Positions 16,614 to 61,644 of a DNA stretch of 64,000 nucleotides are shown piece by piece; position 1 is the stretch's first letter; each line of letters opens with the position of its first letter. The notes below the pieces were generated by a model. It had not been told where the DNA came from, did not search any database, and worked only from the letters and a program-made list of their open reading frames with translations. The translations under genes and the position numbers were made by a program. Origin of the DNA: Minisyncoccota bacterium (lineage in GTDB: Bacteria; Patescibacteriota; Minisyncoccia; Phycocordibacterales; UBA9973); contig JBAYKP010000002.1 of the NCBI GenBank assembly GCA_041664465.1, positions 21,190 through 85,189 of the forward strand, written 5' to 3'.

Positions 16614-18362
16614 ATGGAATCACAAACTAAAGTGTGTCAAAATTGTAAGCTTAATTTCACAATTGAGCCAGATGATTTTTCATTTTACGAAAAGATAAAA
16701 GTCCCTCCACCAACTTGGTGCCCTTATTGTAGGTTTATACGTAAAATGACATTTATTAACGAGCGTTCTCTTTATAAAAGAGTTTGTGATAATTGTAGTC
16801 AGTCTATGATATCTATGTATAGCCCTGATATACCACTTCCTGTTTGGTGCAATAAATGTCATATAAGTGATACTTGGGACGGAACTATATATAGTAGAGA
16901 TTATGATTTCTCTAGAAATTTTTTTGAACAATATAAAAAATTAAAATATGATGTTCCTCATAGGGCGCTTGATCAAAACGAGCGAAATGGCGAAGGGTGT
17001 GAGTATTCCAATCTATGTTACACCAGTAAAAACATATATTTATCTTTTAATATTATTGGTTCTGAAAATCTTAAGTATTCGGCACATGCTTTTAAGAATA
17101 ATAAAAATTGTTTAGATTCACTTATTTTTAAAAATAATGATAGGGGGTATGAGCTTGTTCAGGCTATTTCTAATTACAACTCATCTTTTTTAATTGAAAG
17201 TGACCAATGTGTAGATTCACATTTCCTTTATGATTGTTCTAATTGTGTTAATTGTTGTTTATCTTCAAATCTTCGAAATAAAAGTTATTTTTTTCAAAAT
17301 CAACAGTTATCGCGTGAAGAATATAAAAAGGCAGTTATGGCGCTTAGACTTGAGACATATTCTGGGCAATTAAATACTAAGAATATTTTTATGCAAATAG
17401 CAAAAGATGCAATTCATAAATACGCGCATATAAAGAATTCAGTAGATGTTATTGGAGATTTTATTGAAAATTCAAAAAATATTTACCATTGCTATGGTCT
17501 TGTAGATGCTATAAATACTAAATATGTATTTTTTGCAGTAAATACAATTGTAGATTCTCAAGATGTAATATTTGCAGGAAAAGTAGAGGAGTGCTATGAG
17601 TTTACTCTTGGTGGTAGGGGAGCTAGTCGTGTAATTTTATCTTTTAGTTGTTCTGGGGGGTGCAAGGATCTATTCTATTGTGATTCGTGTATGAGTTGTT
17701 CAGATTGTTTTGGCTGTGTAGGGTTAAAAAAGAAACAGTATTATATTTTTAATAAACAATATAAGAAGGAAGAGTATTTTGAAATGGTTAAGAAAATTAA
17801 ACAACACATGAATGATATGCCTTATATAGATAAGATTGGTAGAATATATAGCTTTGGGGAATGTTTCCCTACAGAACTTTCTCCTTTTGCTTACAATGAA
17901 ACTCTTGCTTTTAAAGAGAATTTTATCTCAAAAGAAGAAGTAATCTCTTTGGGATATAAATGGAAAGAAATGGAATCAAAGTTATATACTCCAACACTTA
18001 AAACAGATTCTGTGCCAGAGAGTATTAATGATGCTCTAGACACTATTTGTAATGAGATTATTGAGTGTCCCAATCAAGGCAAAGTAGATACACAATGCAC
18101 TTCAGCTTATAAAATATTACCAGATGAGTTAGCATTTTATAGACAAATGAATCTTCCAATACCTAGGTATTGTCCGAATTGTAGATATCACAATCGTTTA
18201 ATTTGGAAGAATCTTTTTCACTTTTACAAACGACAATGTATGTGTAATTCATCAAATCATAATCATAAAGGAAAATGTCAGAATGAATTTGAGACATTGT
18301 ATGCTCCCGACAGAGAAGAATTAATTTATTGTAAAGAATGTTATCAACAGGAAGTGTATTAA
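16614..18362 (+). CDS. Cysteine-rich paralog 1 (582 aa, about 37 Cys), unknown family. Has N- and C-terminal CPxCR zinc-ribbon-like modules and internal CxxCxxC clusters.
   Basis: Shares an N-terminal CQNCKxxFTIEPDDFSFYEKIKVPPPTWCPxCR block, a central KHMNDMPYIDKxGRIYxxGExFPxELSPFAYNET block and a C-terminal CQNEFETxYAPDRxExxYCxxCYQ block with the ORFs at 18401 and 29308. Confidence 0.7.
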   Translation: MESQTKVCQNCKLNFTIEPDDFSFYEKIKVPPPTWCPYCRFIRKMTFINERSLYKRVCDNCSQSMISMYSPDIPLPVWCNKCHISDTWDGTIYSRDYDFSRNFFEQYKKLKYDVPHRALDQNERNGEGCEYSNLCYTSKNIYLSFNIIGSENLKYSAHAFKNNKNCLDSLIFKNNDRGYELVQAISNYNSSFLIESDQCVDSHFLYDCSNCVNCCLSSNLRNKSYFFQNQQLSREEYKKAVMALRLETYSGQLNTKNIFMQIAKDAIHKYAHIKNSVDVIGDFIENSKNIYHCYGLVDAINTKYVFFAVNTIVDSQDVIFAGKVEECYEFTLGGRGASRVILSFSCSGGCKDLFYCDSCMSCSDCFGCVGLKKKQYYIFNKQYKKEEYFEMVKKIKQHMNDMPYIDKIGRIYSFGECFPTELSPFAYNETLAFKENFISKEEVISLGYKWKEMESKLYTPTLKTDSVPESINDALDTICNEIIECPNQGKVDTQCTSAYKILPDELAFYRQMNLPIPRYCPNCRYHNRLIWKNLFHFYKRQCMCNSSNHNHKGKCQNEFETLYAPDREELIYCKECYQQEVY

Positions 18363-18400: not shown

Positions 18401-20170
18401 ATGGATTATAAACCAGAAAATAGAATATGTCAGAATTGTAAGAAAGACTTCACTATTGAGCCAGACGATTTTTCATTTTATGAGAAGATGAAAGTCCCTC
18501 CGCCAACTTGGTGTCCTGAATGTCGTTTTCAAAGAAGGTGTCTTTTCCGTAACGAAAGAAAACTTTTCCGAAATATAGATGGAGTTACTGGTAAGCCAAT
18601 ATTTTCACTTTTTCCATTGGAGGCACATTTTCCAATTTATGAAGATAGTTATTGGGCAAGTGATAATTGGGACCCATTTTCTTATGGGATGGACTTTGAT
18701 AGGTCACGACCATTTTTAGCCCAACTCTTAGAGTTGAATTCAAAGGTACCACGTCCTCGCTCTGATGCTATAAATATGGTAAGAAGTGAATATTCTGCAA
18801 ATGCTGCAGACTTAAAAGATTGTTATTTGATTTTTAATTCAAGCTATACAGAAGATTCAGCATATGGAAATGCCAATGATTATTGCAAAAATTGCTTTGA
18901 TAATTCTCATATTCAAAATTCAGAGAAATGTTATGAATCATTTTGGCTTACTAAATGTTATGATACACATTTTTCTTCACAATGCGAGGATTGTGTTTCA
19001 GTTTGGTTTAGTAAAAATTGTCGTGGATGTACGGATTGTTTTGGCTGTGTAAACTTAACAAATAAATCTCATTGCTTTTTCAATCAATCTTTATCAAAAG
19101 AAGAATACAAAGAAAAGATAAAATCACTTGATTTTTCAAAATGGTCAAATCTCGAAAGAATAAAAAAACAAGTTGGAAAAATATGGTTGAATTTTCCTGT
19201 TAGATATCTTCAAGGTATTAAAAATTATTTATCTGATGGCGAATATGTTGCTTATTCAAAAAATGTTCGTCATAGCTACTTAGTTCGAGGGGGAGAAAAT
19301 CTTGCCTATGTGCAATATGTTCAAGTTCCATCATTAAAAGATTCTATGGATGTTATTGTGGGTGGTTGTAATAGTGAGTTAGTATATGAATCTTCAGCTT
19401 GTGGTTGGGATTCTTCACAAATTCGTTTTAGTATTGAGTGTTGGGACGGGGGAATGGATTTTGAATACAGTATGTTTTGTGGAAAGAAAGCCAGTCATAC
19501 ATTTGGTAGTATTAGTATTTGTAGTGGGGAATATGTTATTTTAAATAAAAGATATTCCAAAGAAGAATTTTATAAACTTAGAGATGAAATACGTAAGCAT
19601 ATGGATGAAATGCCATATATAGATAAAAATGGACGTATTTATAAATATGGCGAATTTCTTCCACCTGAGTTTTCCCCTTTTGCATACAACGATACGATAA
19701 CTCCGGAACATTTTCCTTTATCAAAAGAAGAAATAATCTCCTATGGTGCCAATTGGTATGAGATACCAAAAGTTGATTATGAAACAACAATGAAAGCCAA
19801 AGATATACAGGATGATATAAATGATGTATCGGAAGGTATTTTAAAAGAGATTATTTCTTGTGATAAATGTAATCGTGCTTATAGAATAATTCCTTCCGAA
19901 TTACAATTTTTAAAACAAAACCATATTCCAGTTCCTCGTAGTTGTGTGAATTGTCGTCATGATTTACGTATTTCACAAAGAAATAAAAGTAAACTGTATA
20001 AAAGAAAATGTAATTGTAATGGGAACAATTCAACAAATAATAAATATAAAAATGAAATCAGACATTCCCATGACACCGAAGCTTGCCAAAACGAATTTGA
20101 AACATCTTACTCCCCAGATAGACCAGAGATAGTGTATTGCGAAAAGTGCTATCAGCAAGAAATTTATTGA
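18401..20170 (+). CDS. Cysteine-rich paralog 2 (589 aa), same unknown family
   Basis: Conserved N-terminal, central and C-terminal blocks with 16614 and 29308. Confidence 0.7.
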   Translation: MDYKPENRICQNCKKDFTIEPDDFSFYEKMKVPPPTWCPECRFQRRCLFRNERKLFRNIDGVTGKPIFSLFPLEAHFPIYEDSYWASDNWDPFSYGMDFDRSRPFLAQLLELNSKVPRPRSDAINMVRSEYSANAADLKDCYLIFNSSYTEDSAYGNANDYCKNCFDNSHIQNSEKCYESFWLTKCYDTHFSSQCEDCVSVWFSKNCRGCTDCFGCVNLTNKSHCFFNQSLSKEEYKEKIKSLDFSKWSNLERIKKQVGKIWLNFPVRYLQGIKNYLSDGEYVAYSKNVRHSYLVRGGENLAYVQYVQVPSLKDSMDVIVGGCNSELVYESSACGWDSSQIRFSIECWDGGMDFEYSMFCGKKASHTFGSISICSGEYVILNKRYSKEEFYKLRDEIRKHMDEMPYIDKNGRIYKYGEFLPPEFSPFAYNDTITPEHFPLSKEEIISYGANWYEIPKVDYETTMKAKDIQDDINDVSEGILKEIISCDKCNRAYRIIPSELQFLKQNHIPVPRSCVNCRHDLRISQRNKSKLYKRKCNCNGNNSTNNKYKNEIRHSHDTEACQNEFETSYSPDRPEIVYCEKCYQQEIY

Positions 20171-20259: not shown

Positions 20260-21024
20260 ATGAATATCATTATAAAGACAAAAGAACAAATAGAGATTAT
20301 ACGAGAAGGGGGGAAGATTTTGGCGGAGGTATTGAAGAAGGTGGCTAAAAAAGTATCTCCGGGGATTTCGACATACGAACTTGATAAATATGCGTACGAT
20401 TTGATAAAAGAGAAGAGTGGAATCCCAGCATTTTTGAATTACAGGCCAGAAGGTGCACCGAAAGCTTTTCCTGCTTCTATATGTATATCAGTGAATAATG
20501 AAGTTGTTCATGGTATTCCTAGTAAGAATAAAATTTTGAAAGAAGGAGATATTGTCTCTCTTGATTTAGGACTCAAATACAAAGGGCTCTTCACTGACCA
20601 TGCTGTGACTGTGCCCGTGGGGAAGATTTCAAAGAAGGACCAGGATTTGCTCGATAAGACGAAGAAAGCCCTAGAAATAGGCATTTGGGCAGCTCGTGGA
20701 GGGGCTACAGTGGGTGACGTTGGTCACGCCATAGAATCATTTGTGAATAGGAAATATGGCATAGTTCGCGAGCTTTCAGGGCATGGTGTAGGGGTGAAAA
20801 TTCACGAAGATCCATATGTGCCGAACTATGGTAAAGCTGGTAAAGGGCAGAAATTAATTCCAGGAATGATTATAGCCATTGAGCCAATGCTAAATATTGG
20901 AAAGGACAATATAACTGTTGCCAATGATGATTGGACTATTAAAACAGCCGATGGCTCTCATTCTGCTCATTTTGAGCATACGATTCTCATTACCGAAGGT
21001 GACGCGGAAATATTAACTAAGTAA
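20260..21024 (+). CDS. map: Methionine aminopeptidase type I
   Basis: Metal-ligand pattern (D..D..H..E..E) and typical MAP-I sequence. The ORF-track start at 20203 adds 19 non-conserved residues. Confidence 0.88.
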   Translation: MNIIIKTKEQIEIIREGGKILAEVLKKVAKKVSPGISTYELDKYAYDLIKEKSGIPAFLNYRPEGAPKAFPASICISVNNEVVHGIPSKNKILKEGDIVSLDLGLKYKGLFTDHAVTVPVGKISKKDQDLLDKTKKALEIGIWAARGGATVGDVGHAIESFVNRKYGIVRELSGHGVGVKIHEDPYVPNYGKAGKGQKLIPGMIIAIEPMLNIGKDNITVANDDWTIKTADGSHSAHFEHTILITEGDAEILTK

Positions 21025-21146
21025 AAACACTCCATAAAAACATTCTCAGACTCACCACACAATAAAATTCTGCTGAATTTTTTGCTCGCACTCGGCCCGT
21101 CGGCCTGCGTGAGGGTTCGCTTGAGAACATTTTTTATTTCGTGTTT
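21023..21146 (+). repeat. Palindromic repeat element copy A (about 124 bp, starts inside the map stop codon)
   Basis: About 97% identical to 61522-61644. The core matches 31957-32040 and 48461-48542. Terminal arms aaaaacattctcagactcacc / ggttcgcttgagaacattttt are inverted repeats. Confidence 0.8.
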
Positions 21147-21180
21147 AATTAGCCCATATAGATTTTTTAGAATAGTCTCT

Positions 21181-21260
21181 GAGAAGGGGCCGGCGCAGGC
21201 TGTCGAGCCGAGCAATGAGCAAATTTCTAGCAAGAAATTATGTGATTCACCAGAATCACC
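21181..21260 (-). repeat. Diverged inverted copy A' of the same repeat core (head-to-head with copy A)
   Basis: The reverse complement contains tgctcggctcgacagcctg, identical to the copy C core, and a homologous cacataatttcttgctagaaattt segment. Confidence 0.6.
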
Positions 21261-21337
21261 TAAGGGCAGAAATATTCAGGAGAGCTATTCAAAAAATCTA
21301 GATACCAACATTTATAGATCATTTTTTCTTTTTCTTG

Positions 21338-29307: not shown

Positions 29308-31029
29308 ATGAAAAGTGAGACGAAAAACTGCCAGAATTGCAAAAAAGACTTTACTATTGAGCCAGATGATTTTTCTTTTTATGAGAAAATAAAAGTCCCT
29401 CCGCCAACCTTTTGCTCGGAATGTAGAATGATACGAAGGATGATTTGGAGAAATGAGAGGTCTTTTTATCATCGTAATTGTGATTTGTGTGGAGAAAAGA
29501 TAATTTCAGTTTTTGATGATAAAAATTTGAAAATTTATTGCCAGAATTGTTGGCTTAGTGATAAATGGGAATCTTTGGAATATGGAGTAAATTATGATTT
29601 CTCCGCATCATTTTTTTCTCAGTATTCAGGTTTATATAAAAATATACCACTAATAAATTTAAATGGGCATATTTCAAATAAAAACTCACCGTATGTAAAT
29701 TATATTGTTCAGGCTAATAATTGCTATTTTTGTTTTGGTGGAGGATATATAGAAAATGTTATGTTTTCTAATGTTGGGGTAAGAATAAAAGATTCAATGG
29801 AAATATTTTTCTCAATGGATTGTGAATTTTGTTATGAAATATTAAATTGTCAGAAATGTTATCGTATTTATTATGGAAATAATTTGAAAGACTGCATGGA
29901 TAGTTATTTTTTGCAGGACTGCGTGAATTGTAAGGACTGTATCATGTCCTGTAATTTAAGGAATAAATCTTATTGTTTTAAAAATCAACAATTAACTAAA
30001 GAAAAGTTTTTGGTCAAAAAAGAAGAATTTTTAAATAAACTACAGAAAAATATTTATTCTCTTAAAAATGAATTTAAGGAAGTATTGATTAAAAGTCCTA
30101 AAAAATTTGCCAATATTTTGAAATCAGAATTTTCTACAGGTGATAATATCTCTGAAAGTTCACGAGTGGTAAATAGTTTTAATATTTCTAAGAGTGAAAA
30201 TTGTAAAAATTCACAAGATATAGTTGGAGTTGCTCGTGATATCTACGATACAACAAGTGCTGGGTTAGGACTGGAAAATATGTATGAATCAATGTCTGTA
30301 AGTATGAATATTTTGAATTCATTTTTTTCTTTATCAATAAGAAATGATTCTTTTAATATAAATTATTCTTTTGGGTTAACTTCATGTTCCAACTGCTTCG
30401 CCTGCATCGGTCTCCGCTCCAAACAATACTGCATCCTCAACCGCCAATACACCAAAGAAGAATACGAGAGCCTTGTCCCCAAAATCATAAAGCATATGAA
30501 CGACATGCCCTATATAGATAGTAAAGGTAGAATCTACAAATACGGTGAATTCTTCCCAAGTGAACTCTCACCCTTTGCCTACAACGAAACCATAGCCCAA
30601 GAATACTTCCCATTAACAAAGGATGAAGCTCTACAACAAGGCTACAAATGGAAAGACAAGGAAGAACGTAACTACAGTATAGATATACATACAGAAAACA
30701 TCCCAGATTCCATTAAAGACATACCTGATACAGATATCCTAAACAAAGTCATAGAATGTAACCATAAAGGAACCTGTAATCAACAATGTACAGAAGCCTA
30801 TAAGATTATACCCGAAGAACTATCCTTCTACAGACGTATGAATTTACCTCTACCTCGTCTCTGTCCTAACTGTAGACACTATGAACGTCTTTCTCAACGA
30901 AACCCTATGAAATTATGGCATAGAGCCTGTATGAAGCCTGGATGTACCAATGAATTTGAGACATCTTATGCTCCAGAGAGACCGGAGATTGTTTATTGTG
31001 AGAAGTGTTATCAGGGGGAGGTGTATTAA
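29308..31029 (+). CDS. Cysteine-rich paralog 3 (573 aa), same unknown family as 16614 and 18401
   Basis: Same N-terminal, central and C-terminal conserved blocks. Confidence 0.7.
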   Translation: MKSETKNCQNCKKDFTIEPDDFSFYEKIKVPPPTFCSECRMIRRMIWRNERSFYHRNCDLCGEKIISVFDDKNLKIYCQNCWLSDKWESLEYGVNYDFSASFFSQYSGLYKNIPLINLNGHISNKNSPYVNYIVQANNCYFCFGGGYIENVMFSNVGVRIKDSMEIFFSMDCEFCYEILNCQKCYRIYYGNNLKDCMDSYFLQDCVNCKDCIMSCNLRNKSYCFKNQQLTKEKFLVKKEEFLNKLQKNIYSLKNEFKEVLIKSPKKFANILKSEFSTGDNISESSRVVNSFNISKSENCKNSQDIVGVARDIYDTTSAGLGLENMYESMSVSMNILNSFFSLSIRNDSFNINYSFGLTSCSNCFACIGLRSKQYCILNRQYTKEEYESLVPKIIKHMNDMPYIDSKGRIYKYGEFFPSELSPFAYNETIAQEYFPLTKDEALQQGYKWKDKEERNYSIDIHTENIPDSIKDIPDTDILNKVIECNHKGTCNQQCTEAYKIIPEELSFYRRMNLPLPRLCPNCRHYERLSQRNPMKLWHRACMKPGCTNEFETSYAPERPEIVYCEKCYQGEVY

Positions 31030-32489
31030 AATATTACTTTCTTTGCTTCCTCAAATAATTCATCTATTCTTTCTTGAGTTTTTGCTTCACCGAAGAGTTT
31101 AATTATTGGTTCTGTATTTGAAGGACGAAGGTGGAGCCAAGAACTATCCGGTAAGTCTAGGCGTAGGCCATCTTGTTCATCATATGTAGCATCTTTAAAA
31201 TGCTCTTTCAATTTAATGTACATTTGTTTTAGGTCAGAGCCCAATGGCCATTTATCTTTCTTTATTATATATTTTGGCAATTCTTCCATCAGTTCACTTA
31301 TAGTTTTATTTCTCTCTGCCATAAGTTCAAGGATTAAAGCAAGTCCCGTAAAACTATCACGGACTGTATTTATAATAGGGTAGATTATTCCACCATTTCC
31401 TTCACCTCCAACTATTGCATTATGAGCTAGTATTCCTTCTACGACGAATCCTTCGCCAATTTTAGTTCGGAATGTTTCACTTCCATATTTTTTAGCTACA
31501 TCAGCTCCTCTTTGTGAAGTAGAAAGATTAAGCACTATAGGCTTACCTGGATGTTTTGATATCACATTTTCTATTACCAATGCTATAGAATTTTCTTCTG
31601 ACTCCACAATTCCTTTATCACTTACCAATACCAGCCTATCAGCATCAGGATCATGGACGAAGCCTACATCTACTTTTTTTTCAACAACTAATTTTTCTAT
31701 ATCGCCTAGATTCTCACGAAGAGGCTCTGGTCTGTGCCCGAATTTACCATTAGGGATATTGTTTAAGGGATATACTTCTACTCCTAGTTGTTCAAATAAA
31801 TAAGGATCCATCACACAAGCTGAAGCATTGATCATATCAACAGCTACTTTGAATTTCTTAGCACGGATTACTTCTACATTTATATTTTCTAATATTTTAT
31901 CAGCATGTTCTTTGAGAAAGTTTGGTGTAATGTTAGATGGATTTTCGCTCGACTCATTATTCCCGTCAGCACGCGATAAAATTCTACTGAATTTTTCGCT
32001 AGTGCTCGGCTCGACAGCCTGTGCAATGCTTCCTGGAACAATGAGTTCTCGCTCAAATCCATCCCGTTCGAATTTCTTAATTTCTTCTTCATAATATTTA
32101 TTTATCCTTTCTACTTCTTCATTTACAGTGAAAAGAGCTTTATCATTTACAAATTTGAGGCCGTTATATTCTATTGGGTTATGACTTGCGGTAATTATTA
32201 TAGCTCCATCATATCCGTGTTTACGAACAGAGAATAGAACTGTCGGCGTTGGAAGTATATCTCCATATACTGCTTCTACTCCCAGATTTTTTAATTCATT
32301 TAGAATTATTTCTCTTATCTCAGGTCCAGACTCACGACCATCTCTGCCAATTAAAATAGTAGGATGTTCCTTTTTTTCTTTTAAAAATGAAACGAAAGCA
32401 CGCGTATATAAAATAACCACCTCTTTACTAAGTGATTCACCCCAGATACCTCTATATCCAGAGACATTAATTCTTTGTTTAAATTCCAT
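31026..32489 (-). CDS. Phosphohexomutase (phosphoglucosamine mutase / phosphomannomutase family) carrying an in-frame repeat-element insertion
   Basis: GAIIITASHNP (active Ser), DPDADR, GGEGNGG and RPSNTEP motifs. The inserted peptide GSIAQAVEPSTSEKFSRILSRADGN is encoded by the repeat at 31951-32047. The ATG at 32489 is preferred over 32546. Confidence 0.8.
   Translation of the reverse strand: MEFKQRINVSGYRGIWGESLSKEVVILYTRAFVSFLKEKKEHPTILIGRDGRESGPEIREIILNELKNLGVEAVYGDILPTPTVLFSVRKHGYDGAIIITASHNPIEYNGLKFVNDKALFTVNEEVERINKYYEEEIKKFERDGFERELIVPGSIAQAVEPSTSEKFSRILSRADGNNESSENPSNITPNFLKEHADKILENINVEVIRAKKFKVAVDMINASACVMDPYLFEQLGVEVYPLNNIPNGKFGHRPEPLRENLGDIEKLVVEKKVDVGFVHDPDADRLVLVSDKGIVESEENSIALVIENVISKHPGKPIVLNLSTSQRGADVAKKYGSETFRTKIGEGFVVEGILAHNAIVGGEGNGGIIYPIINTVRDSFTGLALILELMAERNKTISELMEELPKYIIKKDKWPLGSDLKQMYIKLKEHFKDATYDEQDGLRLDLPDSSWLHLRPSNTEPIIKLFGEAKTQERIDELFEEAKKVIF
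31951..32047 (+). repeat. Palindromic repeat element copy C, in-frame inside the phosphohexomutase gene
   Basis: The core attcccgtcagcacgcgataaaattct..ctgaatttttcgctagt..ctcgg...gcttcctggaaca is shared with 48461-48542. Flanked by inverted gactcatt / aatgagt. Confidence 0.8.
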
Positions 32490-34015: not shown

Positions 34016-34061
34016 AAAAAAATACCTTTTACAATTAAGTATTTATCTACATAAAATATTA

Positions 34062-34086
34062 TATACCCCCTAGGGGTATATGTCAA
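34062..34086 (-). promoter_or_regulatory. CsoR-type operator palindrome (tatacccc-cta-ggggtata) lying between ttgaca (-35) and an AT-rich -10 on the minus strand
   Basis: Near-identical palindromes at 34782-34806 and 44792-44818. Resembles the published Bacillus CsoR operator (TACCC...GGGGTA). Confidence 0.6.
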
Positions 34087-34722: not shown

Positions 34723-34781
34723 ATAATTTACTTTTGTTTATTTTTATAATAAATACAGTCCGACAAACTTATATAATATTA

Positions 34782-34806
34782 TATACCCCTAGGGGGTATG
34801 TGTCAA
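34782..34806 (-). promoter_or_regulatory. CsoR-type operator palindrome (tatacccc-ta-gggggtat) + ttgaca -35 upstream of the SHOCT/DUF302 pair
   Basis: As for 34062. Confidence 0.6.
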
Positions 34807-34869
34807 CGATATCAATAAACAAGAAAACTACTTCATATGAAGTAGTTTTCTTGTTTATGAATCTCTCTA

Positions 34870-44781: not shown

Positions 44782-44791
44782 ATAAAACATC

Positions 44792-44818
44792 TTATACCCT
44801 AGGGGGGTATAAGTCAAG
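44792..44818 (-). promoter_or_regulatory. CsoR-type operator palindrome (ttataccc-ta-ggggggtataa) + ttgac on the gene strand, 11 nt upstream of the csoR ATG
   Basis: Same palindrome as at 34062 and 34782. Sits in the -35/-10 spacer position. Confidence 0.65.
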
Positions 44819-45742: not shown

Positions 45743-45770
45743 AACACTCTAAATAAATGAGTGTTTTTTA
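45743..45770 (+). terminator. Terminator after ssrA (aacactc-taaataaat-gagtgtt + T-run)
   Basis: Read directly. Confidence 0.65.
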
Positions 45771-45814
45771 TTTACCTTTATTTTTATCCATTCTGCGTGT
45801 ATAATGCACTAACT

Positions 45815-47701
45815 ATGAAGCCCAACACAACAAACAAGCCAAATCAACCCAAAATACCCAATATTATGAATCAGATAATTATTGCAGTATTTATTTTTAT
45901 TAGTATTACCCTTATCTATACCCTTGTCGCCAAGAAGCCAGAAGATGTCAGAAAGATGGCGATTTCTGATGTGGCTAAAAGTGTCCAAGATGGCACAGTG
46001 GAGAAGATTGTAGTTTCTGGGGGAGATGTCAATATTGCTTTCAAAGACAAGACTAATGGCGTAGCAAAGAAAGAATTAGAAAGTTCACTGTCTACCACTT
46101 TATATAATTACGGAGTGACTCCGGCACAATTGTCTGGAACTCCGATTGAGATTAAAACTGAGTCAGGTTTCTGGTATACCATTTTGAATTTATTGCCATT
46201 TTTATTGCCAGTCTTTTTAATTGTATTTTTTATTTGGATGCTTACTCGCCAAGTCAAAGGGCAGGGAATGCAAGCTTTCACTTTCGGACAATCCAAAGCC
46301 CGTATTACCGATCCAGATGACAAGAATAATAAAGTGACGTTCAAGGATGTCGCCGGTGCAAAAGAAGCGAAAGAAGAATTGAAAGAAATTGTAGACTTCT
46401 TGAAAAATCCTAAAAAGTTTTTAGATATTGGAGCAAGAATTCCTAAGGGAGTGCTTCTGACTGGGGCACCTGGAACAGGCAAGACTTTGCTTGCCAGAGC
46501 TGTCGCTGGAGAAGCGGCGGTGCCATTCTTTCATCTTTCAGGAAGTGAATTCGTAGAAATGTTCGTAGGTGTCGGAGCTTCTCGCGTGCGTGACTTATTC
46601 AAAATGGCGAAAAAGGCTGCCCCTTCAATAGTCTTTATCGATGAGATAGATGCTGTGGGGCGTGTGCGTGGTACAGGAGTGGGAGGGGGCAATGATGAAC
46701 GCGAACAAACTCTAAATCAAATACTTGTGGAGATGGACGGCTTTGAACCAAATGAAAAAGTGATAGTCATGGCTGCTACCAATAGAGGTGACGTGCTTGA
46801 CCCCGCACTCCTCCGTCCAGGAAGATTCGATAGACGAGTTCTTCTTGATCTACCAGATAGGAAAGATCGTGAAGAGATTTTGAAAATTCACTCGATTAAA
46901 AAACCTTTTGCTGAAGATGTGAATCTCAAAGTTATCGCTGAGCGTACGCCTGGATTCTCTGGTGCTGATTTATTCTCTATTATGAATGAAGGAGCAATAT
47001 TGGCAGCGAGAGAAGACAGGAAGAAGATTGCCCAATTTGACCTTGTTCGTTCTATTGAGAAAGTAATGATGGGTCCGGAGAGGAAGAGTCATTTGCTTTC
47101 CAAGAAAGAAAAAGAAATTACCGCTTACCACGAAGCAGGCCATGCTCTCATAGCATCAATGCTCCCTTATGCCGACCCAGTTCACAAAGTCTCTATTGTT
47201 TCTCGTGGAAGTGCTGGAGGATATACTTTGAAATTACCACTTGAAGAGAGAAGAATGCAAAGCAAAAAAGAATTCCTCGATGACATAGCTATGTCCTTGG
47301 GTGGTTATGTTGCAGAAGAAATGGTCTTTGGAGATATTACTACTGGACCGTCGAACGATTTACAAGTAGCGACAAGCTTGGCTCGTGCAATGGTCACACG
47401 CTTTGGAATGAGTACAGAGATAGGTCCGATAGCTCTTGAAAGTGATGGTGGGAGAACAATGTTCGGTAGAGGTGTGAACGACCAAGAATACTCTGAACGT
47501 GTCAGTGCTCTTATAGATAGTGAGGTTTCTAAAATAATGAATAATGCTTTTGCTGTCGCTCGCGATGTCCTGACAGATAAAAGAAAAGTATTAGATGCAA
47601 TAGCGCATAAACTTATAGAAGTAGAAACCCTAGAGCAAGCTGAATACAATGAACTCATAACAGCGAATGGAATAATACCTAAAAAGAAAATTAGTGAATA
47701 G
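45815..47701 (+). CDS. ftsH: ATP-dependent zinc metalloprotease FtsH
   Basis: AAA Walker [12 protein letters not shown], and zinc-binding HEAGHAL. The ATG at 45815 is preferred over the GTG at 45761, which overlaps the ssrA terminator. Confidence 0.92.
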
Positions 47702-47785: not shown

Positions 47786-47858
47786 CCGCACTTAGCTCAG
47801 TTGGTAGAGCAATCCGCTTATACCGGATCGGTCCTAGGTTCAAGTCCTAGAGTGCGGA
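47786..47858 (+). tRNA. tRNA, anticodon TAT by manual fold (tRNA-Ile UAU)
   Basis: Manual cloverleaf: acceptor ccgcact/agtgcgg, D arm agctcagttggtagagc, anticodon stem atccg/cggat with loop cttatac, T arm ctagg-ttcaagt-cctag, discriminator A. No encoded CCA. Confidence 0.65.
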
Positions 47859-47863
47859 CAATT

Positions 47864-50167
47864 TTATTCAAAATGCAATTTTAGGTTTTTGTCGGTGAGA
47901 GTTTTCGAGAGGAGAGGGGAGGATTTGAGATATACATCAGAAGTGATCATTTTGATGGCTTCGGTACGGGCGGCTTCCACCATTTTTATATTCTTTATAG
48001 CTTCCATTCCGAGGTCGGTGATGCCCCATTGTTTATCGCCAGAGAGAAGTCCTGCTCCGCGGAGTGTTAGATCAAGCTCTGCCAATTCAAATCCATTAGC
48101 TGCTTTGGTTAAGGCTTTTAATCTGTCTATTGTTTTGTCACTCTTAGCATCGGCAAACAAATAACAATATGACTGGTATGTGGAGCGGATAACTCGTCCA
48201 CGAAGCTGATGAAGCTGTGCGAGGCCAAATCTCTCTGCTCCTTCTATTATGATGACTGTGGCATTAGGGACGTTTACCCCTACTTCTATTACAGAAGTAG
48301 AAACGAGAATATCTATTTTCTTTTCAGCGAAATCTTTCATCACTTTCTCTTTCTTCTCTTTGCTCATTTTACTGTGCATGATATCTATATTGTAATTTGG
48401 GAAGATATCTTTTTTCAGTCTTTTTGCTTCTGAGGTAACGGCTCGTAGGTCGGACAGAGTATTCCCGTCAGCACGCGATAAAATTCTGCTGAATTTTTCG
48501 CTAGTACTCGGCCCGTCGGCCTCCGTAATGCTTCCTGGAACACTCTGTCCGACCTCCTCGCCTTTCCCTAAAACACTTTCTCCGAGCTCCTCTCCGATTT
48601 TCGGACAAATTACATAAAGCTGTCTACCAGCTTCTAATTCCTTTTTAATTTTCTCATAAGAACTTTCTCTTTTATTCTCTGGCACAATTTCTGTAATGAC
48701 TTGTTTACGTCCCGCGGGCATCTCATCAATGATGCTTAAGTCCAAGTCTCCGTATATAGTGAGAGCGAGAGTACGGGGAATGGGAGTAGCAGTCATAGAG
48801 AGGTAGTGCGGTGCGTGGCCGTGCTTCTTCACTAGTTTCATTCTTTGATTCGTGCCAAAGCGGTGCTGTTCATCTATTATGACTAATCCTAAATCTTTGA
48901 ATTCTACAGATTTTGATATGAGTGCATGAGTGCCTATCACTATCGGTATCTCACCATTTTTAATCCATTTCAAAAGTTGATTTTTAGATATAGTGGTCCA
49001 AGTTTTCACTTGTGTACCTTTCTCCCACGGAGCCGATTTACTTGGGAATTTACGGCATCCAGAGCCTGTCATAAGAGCGATAGAGATACCAGTGTGTTCA
49101 AAATACTGGATAAAATTCTCATAAAGTTGCGTTGCAAGTACTTCCGTCGGAGCCATATAAGCTACCTGTAAATTTCCATATTCTCCATACTGAGAAGTTC
49201 CGGTTGTGTTCTTGATTACAGCATAAGCGACAGTTGCTGCCACGAAAGTTTTCCCACTTCCTACGTCTCCTTCAATAAGACGAGACATTGGCTTATCTTT
49301 TATAAAGTCTTCTAGTATCGTATCTATCGCACTTGTTTGGGCCTTGGTCGGAGTAAAAGGGAAACGTCCAACGAAGTCAGTAATATCTTTGTGTGGAATT
49401 TTAAGTTTGTATGAAAAGTTTTCTTGATATTTCTTTTTTTCTTGTTGGCGAGAAAGTTGAATGAAAAACACTTCCTCAAAGGCAAATCTTTTGCGTGCTA
49501 TTTCGGCATGCTCTTTCTTAGCTGGCATGTGGACCCAGATCAAAGCTGTGTGTAAAGCGGGTAATTTGTAAGTATTTAATATTTCACTTGGGATATAATC
49601 TACTATATCTTTCACACAACCTTGCTTCAATATCTTCTGTATAGCATGATAGAACCATTTAGAAGTGATGCCACGACTTTCTCGATAAACAGGGAAGCCG
49701 AATTGCGTTTCCACTCCTTTATTACTCCAAAGTGAATCGTGAATATCTATCGGCAGGATATCTTCTTTATTTATTTCTGGATTTGTGAGAGTAGGGCCGT
49801 AAGTTTTACTATTTGTAACTTTTCCTGTCACTCGCACAGTTGAGCCTTCTTTAAGCATCTTTGCAAGGTATGGCTGATGGAACCAGATGATATTGATAGA
49901 GCCAGTCAAATCAGAAAGTACAGCCTGCCCCATTGGGATTTTACTTTTGAATCCCTTTTTAGTTTTAAGTCCTGTGAGTTTCCCTAAGATGGTGATGTTC
50001 TCACCTTCTGTTAGAGTATTGATATTTCTAACTTCACTTATATCACTATAACGAGAGGGGAAATGATAAAGTAGGTCTCTCAAAGTTTTGAGTCCAAGCA
50101 CTGATAACGCCTTTTTCTGATTTACATCAAGGCGAAAATGATTTTCAATTTTATCGGTTAGATTCAT
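47864..50167 (-). CDS. recG: ATP-dependent DNA helicase RecG carrying an in-frame repeat-element insertion
   Basis: GDVGSGKT, DEQHRFG, and wedge and helicase motifs. The inserted peptide VPGSITEADGPSTSEKFSRILSRADGN is encoded at 48447-48555. Confidence 0.9.
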   Translation of the reverse strand: MNLTDKIENHFRLDVNQKKALSVLGLKTLRDLLYHFPSRYSDISEVRNINTLTEGENITILGKLTGLKTKKGFKSKIPMGQAVLSDLTGSINIIWFHQPYLAKMLKEGSTVRVTGKVTNSKTYGPTLTNPEINKEDILPIDIHDSLWSNKGVETQFGFPVYRESRGITSKWFYHAIQKILKQGCVKDIVDYIPSEILNTYKLPALHTALIWVHMPAKKEHAEIARKRFAFEEVFFIQLSRQQEKKKYQENFSYKLKIPHKDITDFVGRFPFTPTKAQTSAIDTILEDFIKDKPMSRLIEGDVGSGKTFVAATVAYAVIKNTTGTSQYGEYGNLQVAYMAPTEVLATQLYENFIQYFEHTGISIALMTGSGCRKFPSKSAPWEKGTQVKTWTTISKNQLLKWIKNGEIPIVIGTHALISKSVEFKDLGLVIIDEQHRFGTNQRMKLVKKHGHAPHYLSMTATPIPRTLALTIYGDLDLSIIDEMPAGRKQVITEIVPENKRESSYEKIKKELEAGRQLYVICPKIGEELGESVLGKGEEVGQSVPGSITEADGPSTSEKFSRILSRADGNTLSDLRAVTSEAKRLKKDIFPNYNIDIMHSKMSKEKKEKVMKDFAEKKIDILVSTSVIEVGVNVPNATVIIIEGAERFGLAQLHQLRGRVIRSTYQSYCYLFADAKSDKTIDRLKALTKAANGFELAELDLTLRGAGLLSGDKQWGITDLGMEAIKNIKMVEAARTEAIKMITSDVYLKSSPLLSKTLTDKNLKLHFE
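48447..48555 (+). repeat. Palindromic repeat element copy D, in-frame inside recG, flanked by a perfect 14-bp inverted repeat (aggtcggacagagt / actctgtccgacct)
   Basis: The core at 48461-48542 matches copy C and the cores of copies A and B. Confidence 0.85.
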
Positions 50168-50565: not shown

Positions 50566-50596
50566 AATATTAGTATAGCAAAAAATTACAATTTTG

Positions 50597-50683
50597 CGGA
50601 GCCGGCTGGATTCGAACCAGCGGGGGAATTTACTCCCCGCCTCTTTAGCAAAGAGGTAGATTAAACCACTCTCCCACGGCTCC
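50597..50683 (-). tRNA. tRNA-Ser (anticodon GCT), class II with long variable arm
   Basis: Reverse complement folds as ggagccg ... cctct-ttgctaa-agagg ... long variable arm ... gctgg-ttcgaat-ccagc ... cggctcc-g. Confidence 0.75.
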
Positions 50684-50774: not shown

Positions 50775-50864
50775 GGATGAGTGGCCGAGAGGCTTAAGGC
50801 AGCGGTTTACTAAACCGCCGTTCTGTAAAAAGAACCGTGAGTTCGAATCTCACCTCATCCGCCA
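50775..50864 (+). tRNA. Class II (long-variable-arm) tRNA with encoded CCA and an atypical anticodon loop (ttactaa; canonical reading gives anticodon ACT)
   Basis: Acceptor ggatgag/ctcatcc, discriminator G, CCA encoded, T arm gtgag-ttcgaat-ctcac, anticodon stem gcggt/accgc. Identity unresolved. Confidence 0.5.
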
Positions 50865-60983: not shown

Positions 60984-61523
60984 ATGAAAAAAGATAAGTT
61001 AACAATAGGGCAAATTATTAAAAGAGATATCTGGCGACATTTATATCGTGTTTTTCCTTGGGTCCAAAAGCATTTCTTAAAGTGGCACCTAGTCTGGCAT
61101 GAGAAAGGACGTCAGCCTTATCATATCGGGTGGCTTGCCCCAGGGAAGACATTAGAAGAACTTGAAAAGCACTTGCATACTGAATGGGGCTTCGGGAACC
61201 ATTTCGTGGCATGGCATGATAGAGGTCAAGTTCTTTCTTGGCGTAAGCTTGAAGATTTTGATAATCAGTATCATATAAGAGTTTTCAAAGATGGGGAGAT
61301 ACGAGGGCATCATGAATTCACTCCTGAAAGTAAACCATTTGATCATTTCGTAGAAATAAATGAAGAATCTCGCATGGATCAATTTAAAAAGTTTCTCGGA
61401 GATTATATCGTCCAAAGGAAATATATTTCACATTTGAAAGTAGACAAGAAAACTGCTCCAGATTCAGAAATAACTATAGACAATAGACTTGATAAAAATG
61501 GAAGAATCAAACATAAAATTTAA
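60984..61523 (+). CDS. Hypothetical protein (His/Trp-rich), no recognised domain
   Basis: Intact 179-aa ORF. Confidence 0.4.
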   Translation: MKKDKLTIGQIIKRDIWRHLYRVFPWVQKHFLKWHLVWHEKGRQPYHIGWLAPGKTLEELEKHLHTEWGFGNHFVAWHDRGQVLSWRKLEDFDNQYHIRVFKDGEIRGHHEFTPESKPFDHFVEINEESRMDQFKKFLGDYIVQRKYISHLKVDKKTAPDSEITIDNRLDKNGRIKHKI

Positions 61524-61644
61524 AAACACTCCATAAAAAAATTCTCGGACTCACCACACAATAAAATTCTGCTGAATTTTTTGCTCACACTCGGCCCGTC
61601 GGCCTGCGTGAGGGTTCGCTCGAGAACATTTTTATTTTGTGTTT
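61522..61644 (+). repeat. Palindromic repeat element copy B, wedged between the stop codons of two convergent genes
   Basis: About 97% identical to 21023-21146. Confidence 0.8.

Follow-up and report, generated by a model that had tools for sequence, protein, structure and literature searches.

A structured palindromic repeat in recG, other genes and intergenic spacers of Candidatus Nomurabacteria

The recG gene of a patescibacterial genome contains a palindromic segment inside a reading frame that stays open, and this locus raises the question of what the segment is and how it came to lie there. The window referred to below is the whole stretch of DNA that was analysed, 64,000 nt in length. 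In the preliminary description, the segment was taken for a repeat inserted in frame in the manner of the Rickettsia palindromic elements (RPEs) and was thought to be undescribed in this kind of genome; a search of the accessible literature found no report for Patescibacteria/CPR.

Copies of the element

As first described, the recG open reading frame is uninterrupted through the element and encodes VGQSVPGSITEADGPSTSEKFSRILSRADGNTLSDL. There are five copies in the window, four of them full and one diverged; two lie in frame within genes and three are intergenic (Table 1). Copies in the window and in other genomes were detected and scored with the covariance model R1 and are 105-137 nt long. 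The perfect inverted repeat that brackets the recG copy was confirmed, with a chance expectation of 0.11 and only 1 of 100 shuffles giving two or more. The 82-nt core of this copy (48461-48542) is unique in the window at three mismatches or fewer. Whereas the window has a GC content of 35%, that of the core is 51% and that of the elements overall 44-54%. The core had been called nearly identical to three other stretches. This holds for the mutase copy (31957-32040, 90.2% over 82 nt), which has the same orientation and reading frame as the recG copy, and is somewhat generous for the two intergenic copies, whose match is restricted to the central 55 nt (87.3% with 21064-21120 and 85.5% with 61563-61620, each over 55 nt). 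Aligned with one another, the latter two share 95% identity over 118 nt. One begins at the stop codon of a Peptidase_M24 gene, and the other is separated by 4 and 5 nt from the stop codons of its flanking genes. The fifth copy (about 21162-21290) had been overlooked; it is diverged, lies on the opposite strand, matches R1 partially (21192-21241, 38.1 bits) and has an additional hairpin, GTGATTC-ACCA-GAATCAC.

Table 1. Positions of the element copies, their parts and their host genes in the window
Feature	Position	Strand	Description
Diverged intergenic copy, second subfamily	21162..21290	+	Ends AATAGTCT...AGAGCTATT
Intergenic copy	21022..21140	-	R1 102.5 bits; subfamily ends AAAAACAC...GTGTTTTT
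Phosphoglucosamine/phosphohexose mutase (GlmM/PGM-type) ORF	31026..32489	-	487 aa as annotated; second genic host
Mutase element copy, in frame	31944..32054	-	R1 104.8 bits; ERELIVPGSIAQAVEPSTSEKFSRILSRADGNNESSE
recG ORF	47864..50167	-	767 aa; element host; Pfam RecG_wedge, DEAD, Helicase_C
recG element copy, in frame	48445..48556	-	mRNA-sense; encodes about EVGQSVPGSITEADGPSTSEKFSRILSRADGNTLSDLR; R1 125.7 bits, E 3.5e-30 on -, versus 30.8 bits on +; MFE -69.1 kcal/mol, z -8.8
Outer-stem arm, recG copy	48447..48460	.	AGGTCGGACAGAGT; perfect 14-bp inverted repeat with 48542-48555
Outer-stem arm, recG copy	48542..48555	.	ACTCTGTCCGACCT; partner of 48447-48460
Imperfect outer-stem extension, recG copy	48433-48473 / 48529-48569		
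Hairpin 1, recG copy	48480..48497	.	+ strand AAAATTC-TGCT-GAATTTT; sense loop UCAGCAGA
Hairpin 2, recG copy	48510..48521	.	+ strand GGCC-CGTC-GGCC; sense loop GACG
Remnant, 33-nt duplicate of the element 5' arm	48560..48592	-	Sense GAGGAGCTCGGAGAAAGTGTTTTAGGGAAAGGC; peptide ELGESVLGKGE
Intergenic copy	61521..61639	-	R1 95.9 bits; between convergent genes

The core is not confined to the sites listed at first, the covariance model finding it in recG, glmM/PGM, tsaD and about 20 intergenic copies in other genomes. In related genomes the element lies in frame at matching loop positions in recG and in glmM, with further in-frame copies in tsaD (L122 and L162), and members of the family are mostly intergenic. 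A metagenome search with the pattern CGAGN{13,15}CAGCAGN{9,10}CGTGCTGAC returned at least 120 stretches; among the 80 loci listed, 7 were true members, the pattern being too loose. Three intergenic subfamilies have ends that are shared across loci and species, those of the diverged window copy recurring in L002, L005, L016, L018 and L019. While the intergenic subfamilies keep common ends, the distal part of the terminal stem is gene-specific in the genic copies (recG, glmM, tsaD).

Fold and strand polarity

A fold common to 35 copies from many genomes consists of a long outer stem closing a three-way junction, which bears an A/U-rich hairpin (hairpin 1) and a GC-rich hairpin (hairpin 2), with the loops given in Table 1. 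In place of a simple hairpin, the palindrome first described thus forms a heavily covarying three-way junction. Of 1072 pair cells in these copies, 96.1% are paired, and each of the 31 pairs has undergone compensatory change, with both partners altered. None of 500 shuffles matched the real value, and slid controls reached at most 55%. The seven pairs of hairpin 1 are 99.6% paired in the 35 copies, with compensatory changes at 7/7, and the four pairs of hairpin 2 are 97.8% paired, all covarying. The outer stems measure 7-25 bp and the perfect stems 14-22 bp. The more stable strand is identical in 35/35 copies, with a mean advantage of 8.8 kcal/mol, and the asymmetry of the strands is also visible in the pairs themselves (45 G.T versus 17 A.C). 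Conservation is seen in the bases of the loops and the junction but not in the sequence of the stems, which suggests that one strand in its folded form, and not the linear sequence, would be what is recognised.

The hairpin-1 stem AAAATTC/GAATTTT is common to all four full window copies, and the two copies of L002 likewise share theirs. Concerted evolution is not claimed, as L004, L005, L018, L019 and L073 hold differing hairpin-1 stems within one genome.

At gathering threshold, Rfam 15 gave no match on the elements over the whole window. At E <=10, two element regions gave as their sole match the bZIP intron model (Hac1/Xbp1; 19.4 bits, E 0.31, gathering score 41), the intergenic copy that was searched giving none; no ribozyme or intron signature appeared in the Rfam searches of the elements. 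A tRNA-like origin was rejected, ARAGORN calling none of the copies. The motif CUGACGG-GAAU looks by eye like a hammerhead or self-cleaving core but is without the intervening stem II and has no Rfam match, and was likewise rejected. A terminator scan requiring a loop of 3-8 nt did not call the elements. The only feature behind the terminator-like idea is the A/T runs.

Insertion sites and coding consequences

The recG insert had been assigned to the linker between the two RecA-like lobes. Alignment to solved structures, which places the inserts of both RecG and the mutase in loops, shows instead that it follows the beta-strand LYVIC (516-520) inside the C-terminal RecA-like lobe (lobe 2). Residues 524-571 of RecG have pLDDT values below 50 in the AF2 model. 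The segment is not ancestral, in agreement with the original interpretation: the window RecG has 53 residues where T. maritima RecG has 11, and among the 80 recG loci of Nomurabacteria compared at species level, 56 retain a linker of 15-19 residues (type xEPDPDKExAxxxKSV). Some insert is present in 23 of these 80 species linkers, and in 12 of the 23 it is the element; the linker of one species (L009) is a stem only. The L009 allele is a bare perfect hairpin whose total linker length is as in empty alleles. On a neighbour-joining (NJ) RecG tree of 68 species, the distribution of the element corresponds to at least nine gains or losses. Identity among the recG elements (51-93%) is unrelated to that of their host genes (64-84%). 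In filled alleles the former linker residues are replaced rather than just split, so that there is no clean insertion. Beside the recG copy, a 33-nt remnant is unique to its lineage, being missing from all of the 120 orthologs listed, and is similar to an arm of other recG alleles, e.g. that of L015; it would be the trace of a re-insertion or replacement.

The mutase reading frame also remains open across its element, which lies between PGM domains I and II. Compared with L205 and L206, the window glmM element is 91-93% identical (87-89% at third codon positions), whereas the gene outside the element is 66% identical (44% at third positions). Closely related orthologs lack the element in recG, in glmM and in the M24 spacer, and the M24-DUF8128 spacer is 8 nt long in L205 and L206 versus 310 nt, with two elements, in the window. 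The hexamer GAGCGA is directly repeated on both sides of the glmM and tsaD copies. Nevertheless, a clear target-site duplication was not found: L273, a glmM allele without the element, has no GAGCGA, and no clean junction could be read from it or from the empty M24 spacers. The intergenic copies have AT-rich flanks, which preclude target-site-duplication calls.

The length of every genic copy examined (recG, glmM, tsaD) is divisible by three, and none has a stop in the frame of its host; this is also true of recG inserts of several unrelated families. Among the intergenic copies, 8/15 have stops in all sense frames. The genic copies whose DNA was read are all in mRNA sense. Some glmM orthologs apparently hold a reversed element with unrelated peptides, as judged by back-translation from the peptides. 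The peptide encoded by the element is not conserved; compensatory stem changes give EKFSRIL, KNLSRDL, KKPSKVL or EIFQQKN, and local frame shifts alter it further. Given that they have no stops and that the loops in which they are placed are predicted with low confidence, the genic copies are probably translated with the host protein. HMM alignments of the insert-bearing proteins split into two domains.

Origin of the family and its relation to known repeats

The element is probably a non-autonomous, structure-dependent mobile repeat of Candidatus Nomurabacteria whose behaviour matches that of RPEs and in-frame MITEs. Small non-coding repeats (105-135 nt) would spread within and between Nomurabacteria genomes, and the factor propagating them, presumably an enzyme acting in trans, would recognise one polarity of the single strand (ssDNA or RNA) in its folded state. 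The majority of insertions would persist in short intergenic spacers adjoining gene ends. Inside genes, the survivors would be the multiple-of-three, stop-free copies in a tolerant surface loop, and these would be transcribed and translated as a hydrophilic, probably disordered loop of 27-37 residues (recG, window mutase). Occupied sites would afterwards be overwritten or re-invaded by related copies. Against this explanation stand the lack of a clear target-site duplication and of clean insertions, and also the recurrence at one exact position in each of three genes, which needs filtering to be strong, the site to be targeted or resident copies to be replaced. In addition, no transposase or other candidate enzyme was identified among the genes of the window at 19-64 kb, no transposase Pfam family among those of the syntenic loci, and no autonomous partner element. 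A phage vector was considered and is unsupported, two exact-pattern scans of viral contigs and then the covariance model having found no copy.

The heavy covariation and conserved loops could instead express a function of the RNA in the host. The copies would then be recruited, rather than selfishly spread, instances of a host-selected structured module (a protein or RNase site, a 3'-end stabiliser or a terminator) under purifying selection. Such a module would account for the very strong covariation with its conserved loop and junction bases, for the constancy of the better-folding strand in 35/35 copies and for the mRNA sense of all genic copies read as DNA. Intergenic copies are frequently found 3-15 nt past stop codons, in the 21.0k/61.5k subfamily the stem is preceded by an A-run and followed by a T-run, like bidirectional terminators, and the glmM element is conserved far above its host gene. 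However, about 7/18 intergenic copies are antisense to the flanking genes, the element seems to be reversed in some glmM orthologs (from their peptides), and it is missing from close orthologs of recG, glmM and the M24 spacer. Its similarity is moreover independent of host phylogeny, and both Rfam 15 and the simple terminator scan are silent at the elements; we regard recruitment of an RNA module as unlikely. It is very unlikely that the segment acts as an intervening sequence, cut out of the transcript by stem cleavage and rejoining or passed over by translational bypass, leaving a mature protein without the 36 residues. Perfect stems of 14-22 bp would indeed juxtapose both flanks, nucleotide conservation is above that of the host gene, and there is the weak likeness to the two-hairpin Hac1/Xbp1 intron model, far under its gathering score. 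Yet all genic copies are multiples of three and stop-free, which a removed segment would not need to be, Rfam shows no ribozyme or intron signature, and the element is common between genes too. To our knowledge, RNase III products are not substrates of the known bacterial RNA ligase RtcB, which also counts against removal.

Two further explanations dispense with insertion or with movement. The constant position of the segment in many Nomurabacteria RecG orthologs would be expected of an ancestral or lineage-specific part of the protein under protein-level selection, but the segment is missing from T. maritima and most Nomurabacteria RecG and is predicted to be disordered. The same DNA is found in two further genes and between genes, and the peptide varies freely while base pairing persists; this explanation is almost certainly wrong. 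Alternatively, palindromes could arise locally and independently by hairpin-templated mutation (template switching) in AT-rich DNA, with nothing moving. The distal outer stems, locus-specific and often perfectly complementary, would fit such an origin, as would the bare perfect hairpin of L009 at the linker length of empty alleles. In contrast, the 80-nt core with its asymmetric loops and junctions is 85-93% identical across unrelated loci and genomes, which makes an independent origin of the core impossible, and template switching is an extremely improbable source of the family, although it may be the source of outer-stem growth and repair.

Within the preferred explanation, a mobile repeat, a more specific proposal can be made tentatively, at rather low probability: the element would be of a new kind, structure-guided and returning to its sites, with an enzyme that reads the three-way junction of 110 nt in single-stranded, folded form, in a homing-like manner without an encoded endonuclease. 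It may move between Nomurabacteria lineages and land at, or overwrite, fixed codon-level positions of recG, glmM and tsaD. The conserved fold might additionally work as RNA within host mRNAs.

Among known systems, RPEs are palindromic, about 105-146 bp long and have a long stem (Ogata et al. 2000, 2002, via PMC2229807 and PMC10969869). They are described in these accounts as in-frame, stop-free inserts in housekeeping-protein loops, with intergenic copies in addition, and their families as encoding a conserved peptide; retention of the insert in the protein, at a fold-compatible surface site, was shown for Rickettsia gmk (PMC2229807, PMC10969869). The element resembles them in size, in its palindrome with a long stem, in having intergenic and in-frame housekeeping-gene copies, in what would be a hydrophilic addition where the protein surface tolerates it, and in a host whose genome is small and AT-rich and whose lifestyle is dependent. 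The likeness proposed at the outset thus extends to stop-free, in-frame loop insertion and to intergenic copies, but not to membership of the RPE sequence families, and the host is a member of the Patescibacteria (Candidatus Nomurabacteria / Paceibacterota), not of the Alphaproteobacteria. The element furthermore has a three-way junction with two conserved-loop hairpins where RPEs form one stem-loop. It shows covariation at every pair, a clear preference for one strand and no conserved peptide, and orthologous sites were repeatedly gained, lost or replaced. It is a new family in another phylum than the RPEs, set apart by its host and by the RPE descriptions rather than by comparison of consensus sequences.

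Bacterial MITEs with in-frame intragenic copies include the 107-bp form of Correia/NEMIS, ERIC, YPAL and RU-3, and MITEs are defined by A+T-richness, TA termini, target-site duplication and a partner insertion sequence (PMC2229807). Like them, the element is shorter than 200 bp and non-coding, has terminal inverted repeats common within subfamilies and subfamily-specific ends, forms a stable stem-loop transcript and is mostly intergenic with occasional ORF fusions. In contrast, it is GC-richer than its genome (44-54% versus 35%), has no demonstrable TA ends or target-site duplication and no partner insertion sequence among the genes at 19-64 kb and in the syntenic loci, carries gene-specific distal terminal stems in its genic copies, and keeps its internal structure by covariation.

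For REPIN/REP (RAYT) and IS200/IS605-derived palindromes, a Y1-type transposase presumably acts on one strand, of fixed polarity, in its folded state, and REPs have a conserved 5' GTAG motif and are strictly extragenic. The element is likewise a short structured repeat, and Y1-type handling would fit its strand asymmetry, but it has no GTAG-type motif, has intragenic copies and consists of two differing hairpins inside one long stem; no RAYT/TnpA gene was seen near the copies. Integron attC sites offer an analogy only: they conserve structure rather than sequence and are recognised folded, as single strands of one polarity. The element has no cassettes, integrase or R'/R'' core sites, and we know of no attC sites in frame in housekeeping genes. 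The GC clusters and bypass elements of yeast mitochondria are GC-rich palindromic mobile inserts of an AT-rich genome that can sit in coding sequence. They belong to eukaryotic organelles, however, and the ribosome passes over bypass elements, which can thus be out of frame, whereas the genic copies of the element are all in frame and stop-free.

In-frame "protein-coding palindromes" were earlier presented as a peculiarity of Rickettsia. Like behaviour in Patescibacteria, a further lineage of tiny genomes and dependent lifestyle, suggests that such inserts arise generally where genomes are reduced and AT-rich and offer few landing sites between genes. The family is unusually informative, with dozens of independent copies that show complete covariation, a clear strand polarity and repeated gain, loss and replacement at orthologous sites. 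Covariation, polarity and site turnover together make the question of movement testable, as regards the ssDNA or RNA intermediate, the enzyme and the choice of site. In practice, the inserts make CPR housekeeping proteins larger and more diverse, split their HMM alignments as noted above, and can lead gene callers and phylogenies astray.

Fold and copies of the element

The repeat adopts one fold in every copy, a long outer stem closing a three-way junction with two hairpin branches, one GC-rich (4 bp, loop GACG or GUCG) and one A/U-rich (7-10 bp, loop UCAGCAGA). A covariance model of the element, R1, constructed from 15 copies, found only four full copies in the window (96-126 bits) and a partial diverged one. 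In an R1-fitted alignment of 35 copies, taken from the window, from 80 species-level recG loci and from elsewhere, standard pairs occupied 96.1% of 1072 pair cells and both-sided changes were seen in 31 of 31 pairs. None of 500 shuffles reached these values, and pairing fell to 35-55% once the 3' partners were displaced by 1-3 columns. Independently of the R1 fit, MAFFT/RNAalifold gave compensatory pairs in 27 of 31. The fold has a polarity: the recG-mRNA-sense strand is more stable in all 35 copies (mean 8.8 kcal/mol), with 45 G.T wobbles vs 17 A.C mismatches. No family in Rfam 15 matches the element.

The inverted repeat AGGTCGGACAGAGT / ACTCTGTCCGACCT, noticed in the preliminary description, is indeed perfect over 14 bp, for a chance expectation of 0.11 matches. 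The 82-nt recG core (51% GC vs 35% for the window) is 90.2% identical over 82 nt to 31957-32040 in the phosphohexomutase gene glmM, and over 55 nt 87.3% identical to 21064-21120 and 85.5% to 61563-61620. The latter two intergenic copies, 21.0k and 61.5k, share 95% identity over 118 nt. A- and T-runs flank the stem in their subfamily, whose possible role as a bidirectional terminator is only a conjecture because these elements are not among the calls of a simple terminator scan. The recG frame stays open through its copy, as had been claimed, and the mutase ORF also reads through its own, in the same orientation and frame.

Features of the window and of related loci
Feature	Position	Strand	Remarks
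Element, recG copy	48445-48556	-	
Inverted repeat, 14 bp	48447-48460 / 48542-48555		
Element, mutase copy	31944-32054	-	
Element, 21.0k copy	21022-21140		
Element, 61.5k copy	61521-61639		
Element, fifth, diverged copy	about 21162-21290	opposite	extra hairpin; compensatory changes in hairpin 1 (A/U-rich)
recG ORF	47864-50167	-	767 aa
Mutase ORF	31026-32489	-	
Remnant of older 5' arm in recG, 33 nt	48560-48592		just upstream of present copy
Additional RecG segment	about 48990-49080		residues ~363-392
36-nt repeat, three copies	34051-34086, 34771-34806, 44782-44817		centred on palindrome TATACCCC(C)TAGGGGGTATA
58-nt palindrome	34808-34865		spacer upstream of AhpC/Redoxin gene
Paralogous ORFs	16614-18362, 18401-20170, 29308-31029		573-589 aa; no Pfam match
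ftsH ORF	45761-47701		646 aa
tRNA-Ile	47786-47859		anticodon UAU; ARAGORN
tRNA-Ser	50775-50864		anticodon ACU; ARAGORN
tRNA-Ser, normal	50596-50683		anticodon GCU; adjoins the preceding
recG loci with other insert families	L014, L032, L033, L034, L046, L060, L068, L072, L075, L078		linker site

Other features of the window

The window is nearly identical to the ENA metagenome contig ERZ27249449 k141_630824, and its closest proteins place it in Candidatus Nomurabacteria / Paceibacterota, within the candidate phyla radiation. A 1-nt indel at ~46424-46450 splits ftsH of that contig into 202-aa and 416-aa gene calls, the ORF being intact in the window, and two mismatches lie within 19308-41029; hence the two sequences are assemblies of one genome, the window being a slightly different or a corrected version. 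The 36-nt repeats lie within a copper/metal-handling cluster (HMA, Cupredoxin, DsbD), one of them near a Trns_repr_metal (CsoR-type) gene, and they resemble CsoR-type operator sites. The 58-nt palindrome is near-perfect: its two 29-nt arms abut each other and show 90% complementarity. The three paralogous ORFs, which have in common some DNA stretches of 67-75% identity, end in a common Cys-rich C-terminus (...YC..CYQ.E.Y*). The UAU and ACU anticodons are both unusual for bacteria; the ACU call may be a misplaced anticodon.

Insertion sites across genomes

Among 80 recG loci from GTDB species representatives, 56 have a short linker of 15-19 residues (xEPDPDKExAxxxKSV, or DGDDEEEKVKLDVKSV) and in 23 the position is occupied by an insert, which in 12 cases belongs to the three-way-junction family. 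One further allele (L009) consists of the outer stem alone, as a perfect hairpin. The remaining inserts, all in-frame and stop-free, are unrelated palindromic families such as PLRPSGTSPLAGG or IFxPRGSR...EGRRGxKF. On a neighbour-joining tree of 68 RecG sequences without the insert, presence of the family requires at least nine changes. The element was inserted into recG, and repeatedly so. An ancestral protein segment of RecG, the reading that would make it no insertion at all, has a negligible probability: as the preliminary description had supposed, the segment is not ancestral, Thermotoga maritima RecG (1GM5) having 11 residues at this place vs 53 here.

In other Nomurabacteria, this recG loop carries in-frame palindromic inserts of at least five more families, all of them unrelated. 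PLRPSGTSPLAGG is encoded by GC-rich hairpins, IFxPRGSR...EGRRGxKF comes from a second two-hairpin family, and the PLRPSGTSP-type element is also found in the glmM orthologs P0152, P0166 and P0168. In two host genes (recG, L004:11573-11800; glmM, protein P0141) ~96 extra nt encoding ...RPFE...QKVYCSCK... are nested within hairpin 2, the GC-rich branch. Since this segment matches, in part, the 5' arm of a different subfamily (L018:3999-4104), elements are suggested to insert into, or recombine with, one another. In this clade RecG contains another ~20-residue segment, GSGCRKFPSKSAPWEKGTQVKTWTTISKNQ, absent from T. maritima RecG; it is conserved in Nomurabacteria orthologs and is not a repeat copy.

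R1 also extended the family beyond the sites first noted, to tsaD and intergenic places of other genomes. In the mutase, whose baseline is ~457 aa, an insert occupies the corresponding position in roughly half of the 120 closest orthologs listed; judging from peptides, some appear to hold the element in the opposite orientation. A metagenome scan gave tsaD as third host gene (L122 and L162 among the matches listed), in-frame and with the same orientation and frame. In recG-locus flanks about 20 further copies were found, nearly all intergenic, many of them 3-15 nt from a stop codon (~11 sense and 7 antisense to neighbouring genes). The spacer between Peptidase_M24 and the DUF8128 ATPase proves presence and absence of the element at an orthologous intergenic site: L205 and L206 have 8 nt there, but the window has 310 nt, which include two elements and retain the original GTG(A/G)TATAATA at the right-hand junction.

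The element sites in RecG, the mutase and TsaD are loops. The RecG insert follows strand 516-520 and precedes helix 570-588, inside the C-terminal RecA-like lobe, so its earlier placement in the inter-lobe linker was slightly off; residues 524-571 have pLDDT <50 in a moderate-quality model (mean 66). The mutase insert separates domains I and II, and solved structures have a 4-residue loop at the TsaD site. Further lineage-specific inserts occur elsewhere in TsaD of L122 (DPVRSRSPQGDRSTPTKSRRAASNG), RecG of L093 (two segments) and GlmM of L086 (SPDNSPKSDLGSLSLTSGN), for which reason in-frame insertion may be widespread in these genomes.

Proposed mobility and relation to known elements

The host frame stays open through each of the 20 genic copies examined, and 19 of these share one frame relative to the element, whereas 8 of 15 intergenic copies lack any open sense frame. 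Genic copies are thus constrained to stay translatable, which argues against excision from mRNA and makes an intervening sequence in recG and mutase transcripts quite unlikely. The encoded peptide shows no conservation, and compensatory changes in the stems convert EKFSRIL into KNLSRDL, KKPSKVL or EIFQQKN.

The window mutase element shares 91-93% identity with its counterparts in L205 and L206 (87-89% at third codon positions), although the gene outside it is only 66% identical (44% at third positions), and much closer mutase orthologs have different variants. In recG, element identity (51-93%) is unrelated to gene identity (64-84%). Because stems change quickly among close recG orthologs, constraint alone cannot account for the high mutase-element identity. 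This weighs against a structured RNA module selected by the host, which we consider improbable though the least so of the alternatives. Palindromes generated locally are very unlikely. Copies must have been exchanged, re-inserted or overwritten; the 33-nt recG remnant fits replacement of a resident copy, and homogenisation within a genome, seen in some genomes only, is not claimed. On these sequence comparisons, the history of the element does not follow that of its host.

The preliminary description was essentially right in reading a real inserted repeat as similar to Rickettsia palindromic elements (RPEs): its behaviour matches that described for RPEs and other in-frame bacterial MITEs (PMC2229807, PMC10969869). 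It is nevertheless not a member of the RPE family, because its host belongs to a different phylum, it has no conserved peptide and its fold differs. Unlike a typical MITE, it exceeds its genome in GC content, its genic copies have distal stems specific to each host gene and no target-site duplication is evident; none was identified at the copies, including by comparison with empty M24 spacers and an empty glmM allele. No transposase or partner element was identified among the genes of the window at 19-64 kb. A full-text literature search, with most subscription journals outside its coverage, returned no description of such elements in Patescibacteria/CPR.

The best supported reading is a non-autonomous mobile repeat that would be handled in folded single-stranded form, with one polarity, and for which we infer a mobilising enzyme and an intermediate. 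Short spacers would tolerate it, as would surface loops if it is in-frame, and in such loops it would be translated as a disordered passenger. Its recurrence at the same sites is homing-like, with an unusually clean structural signal.
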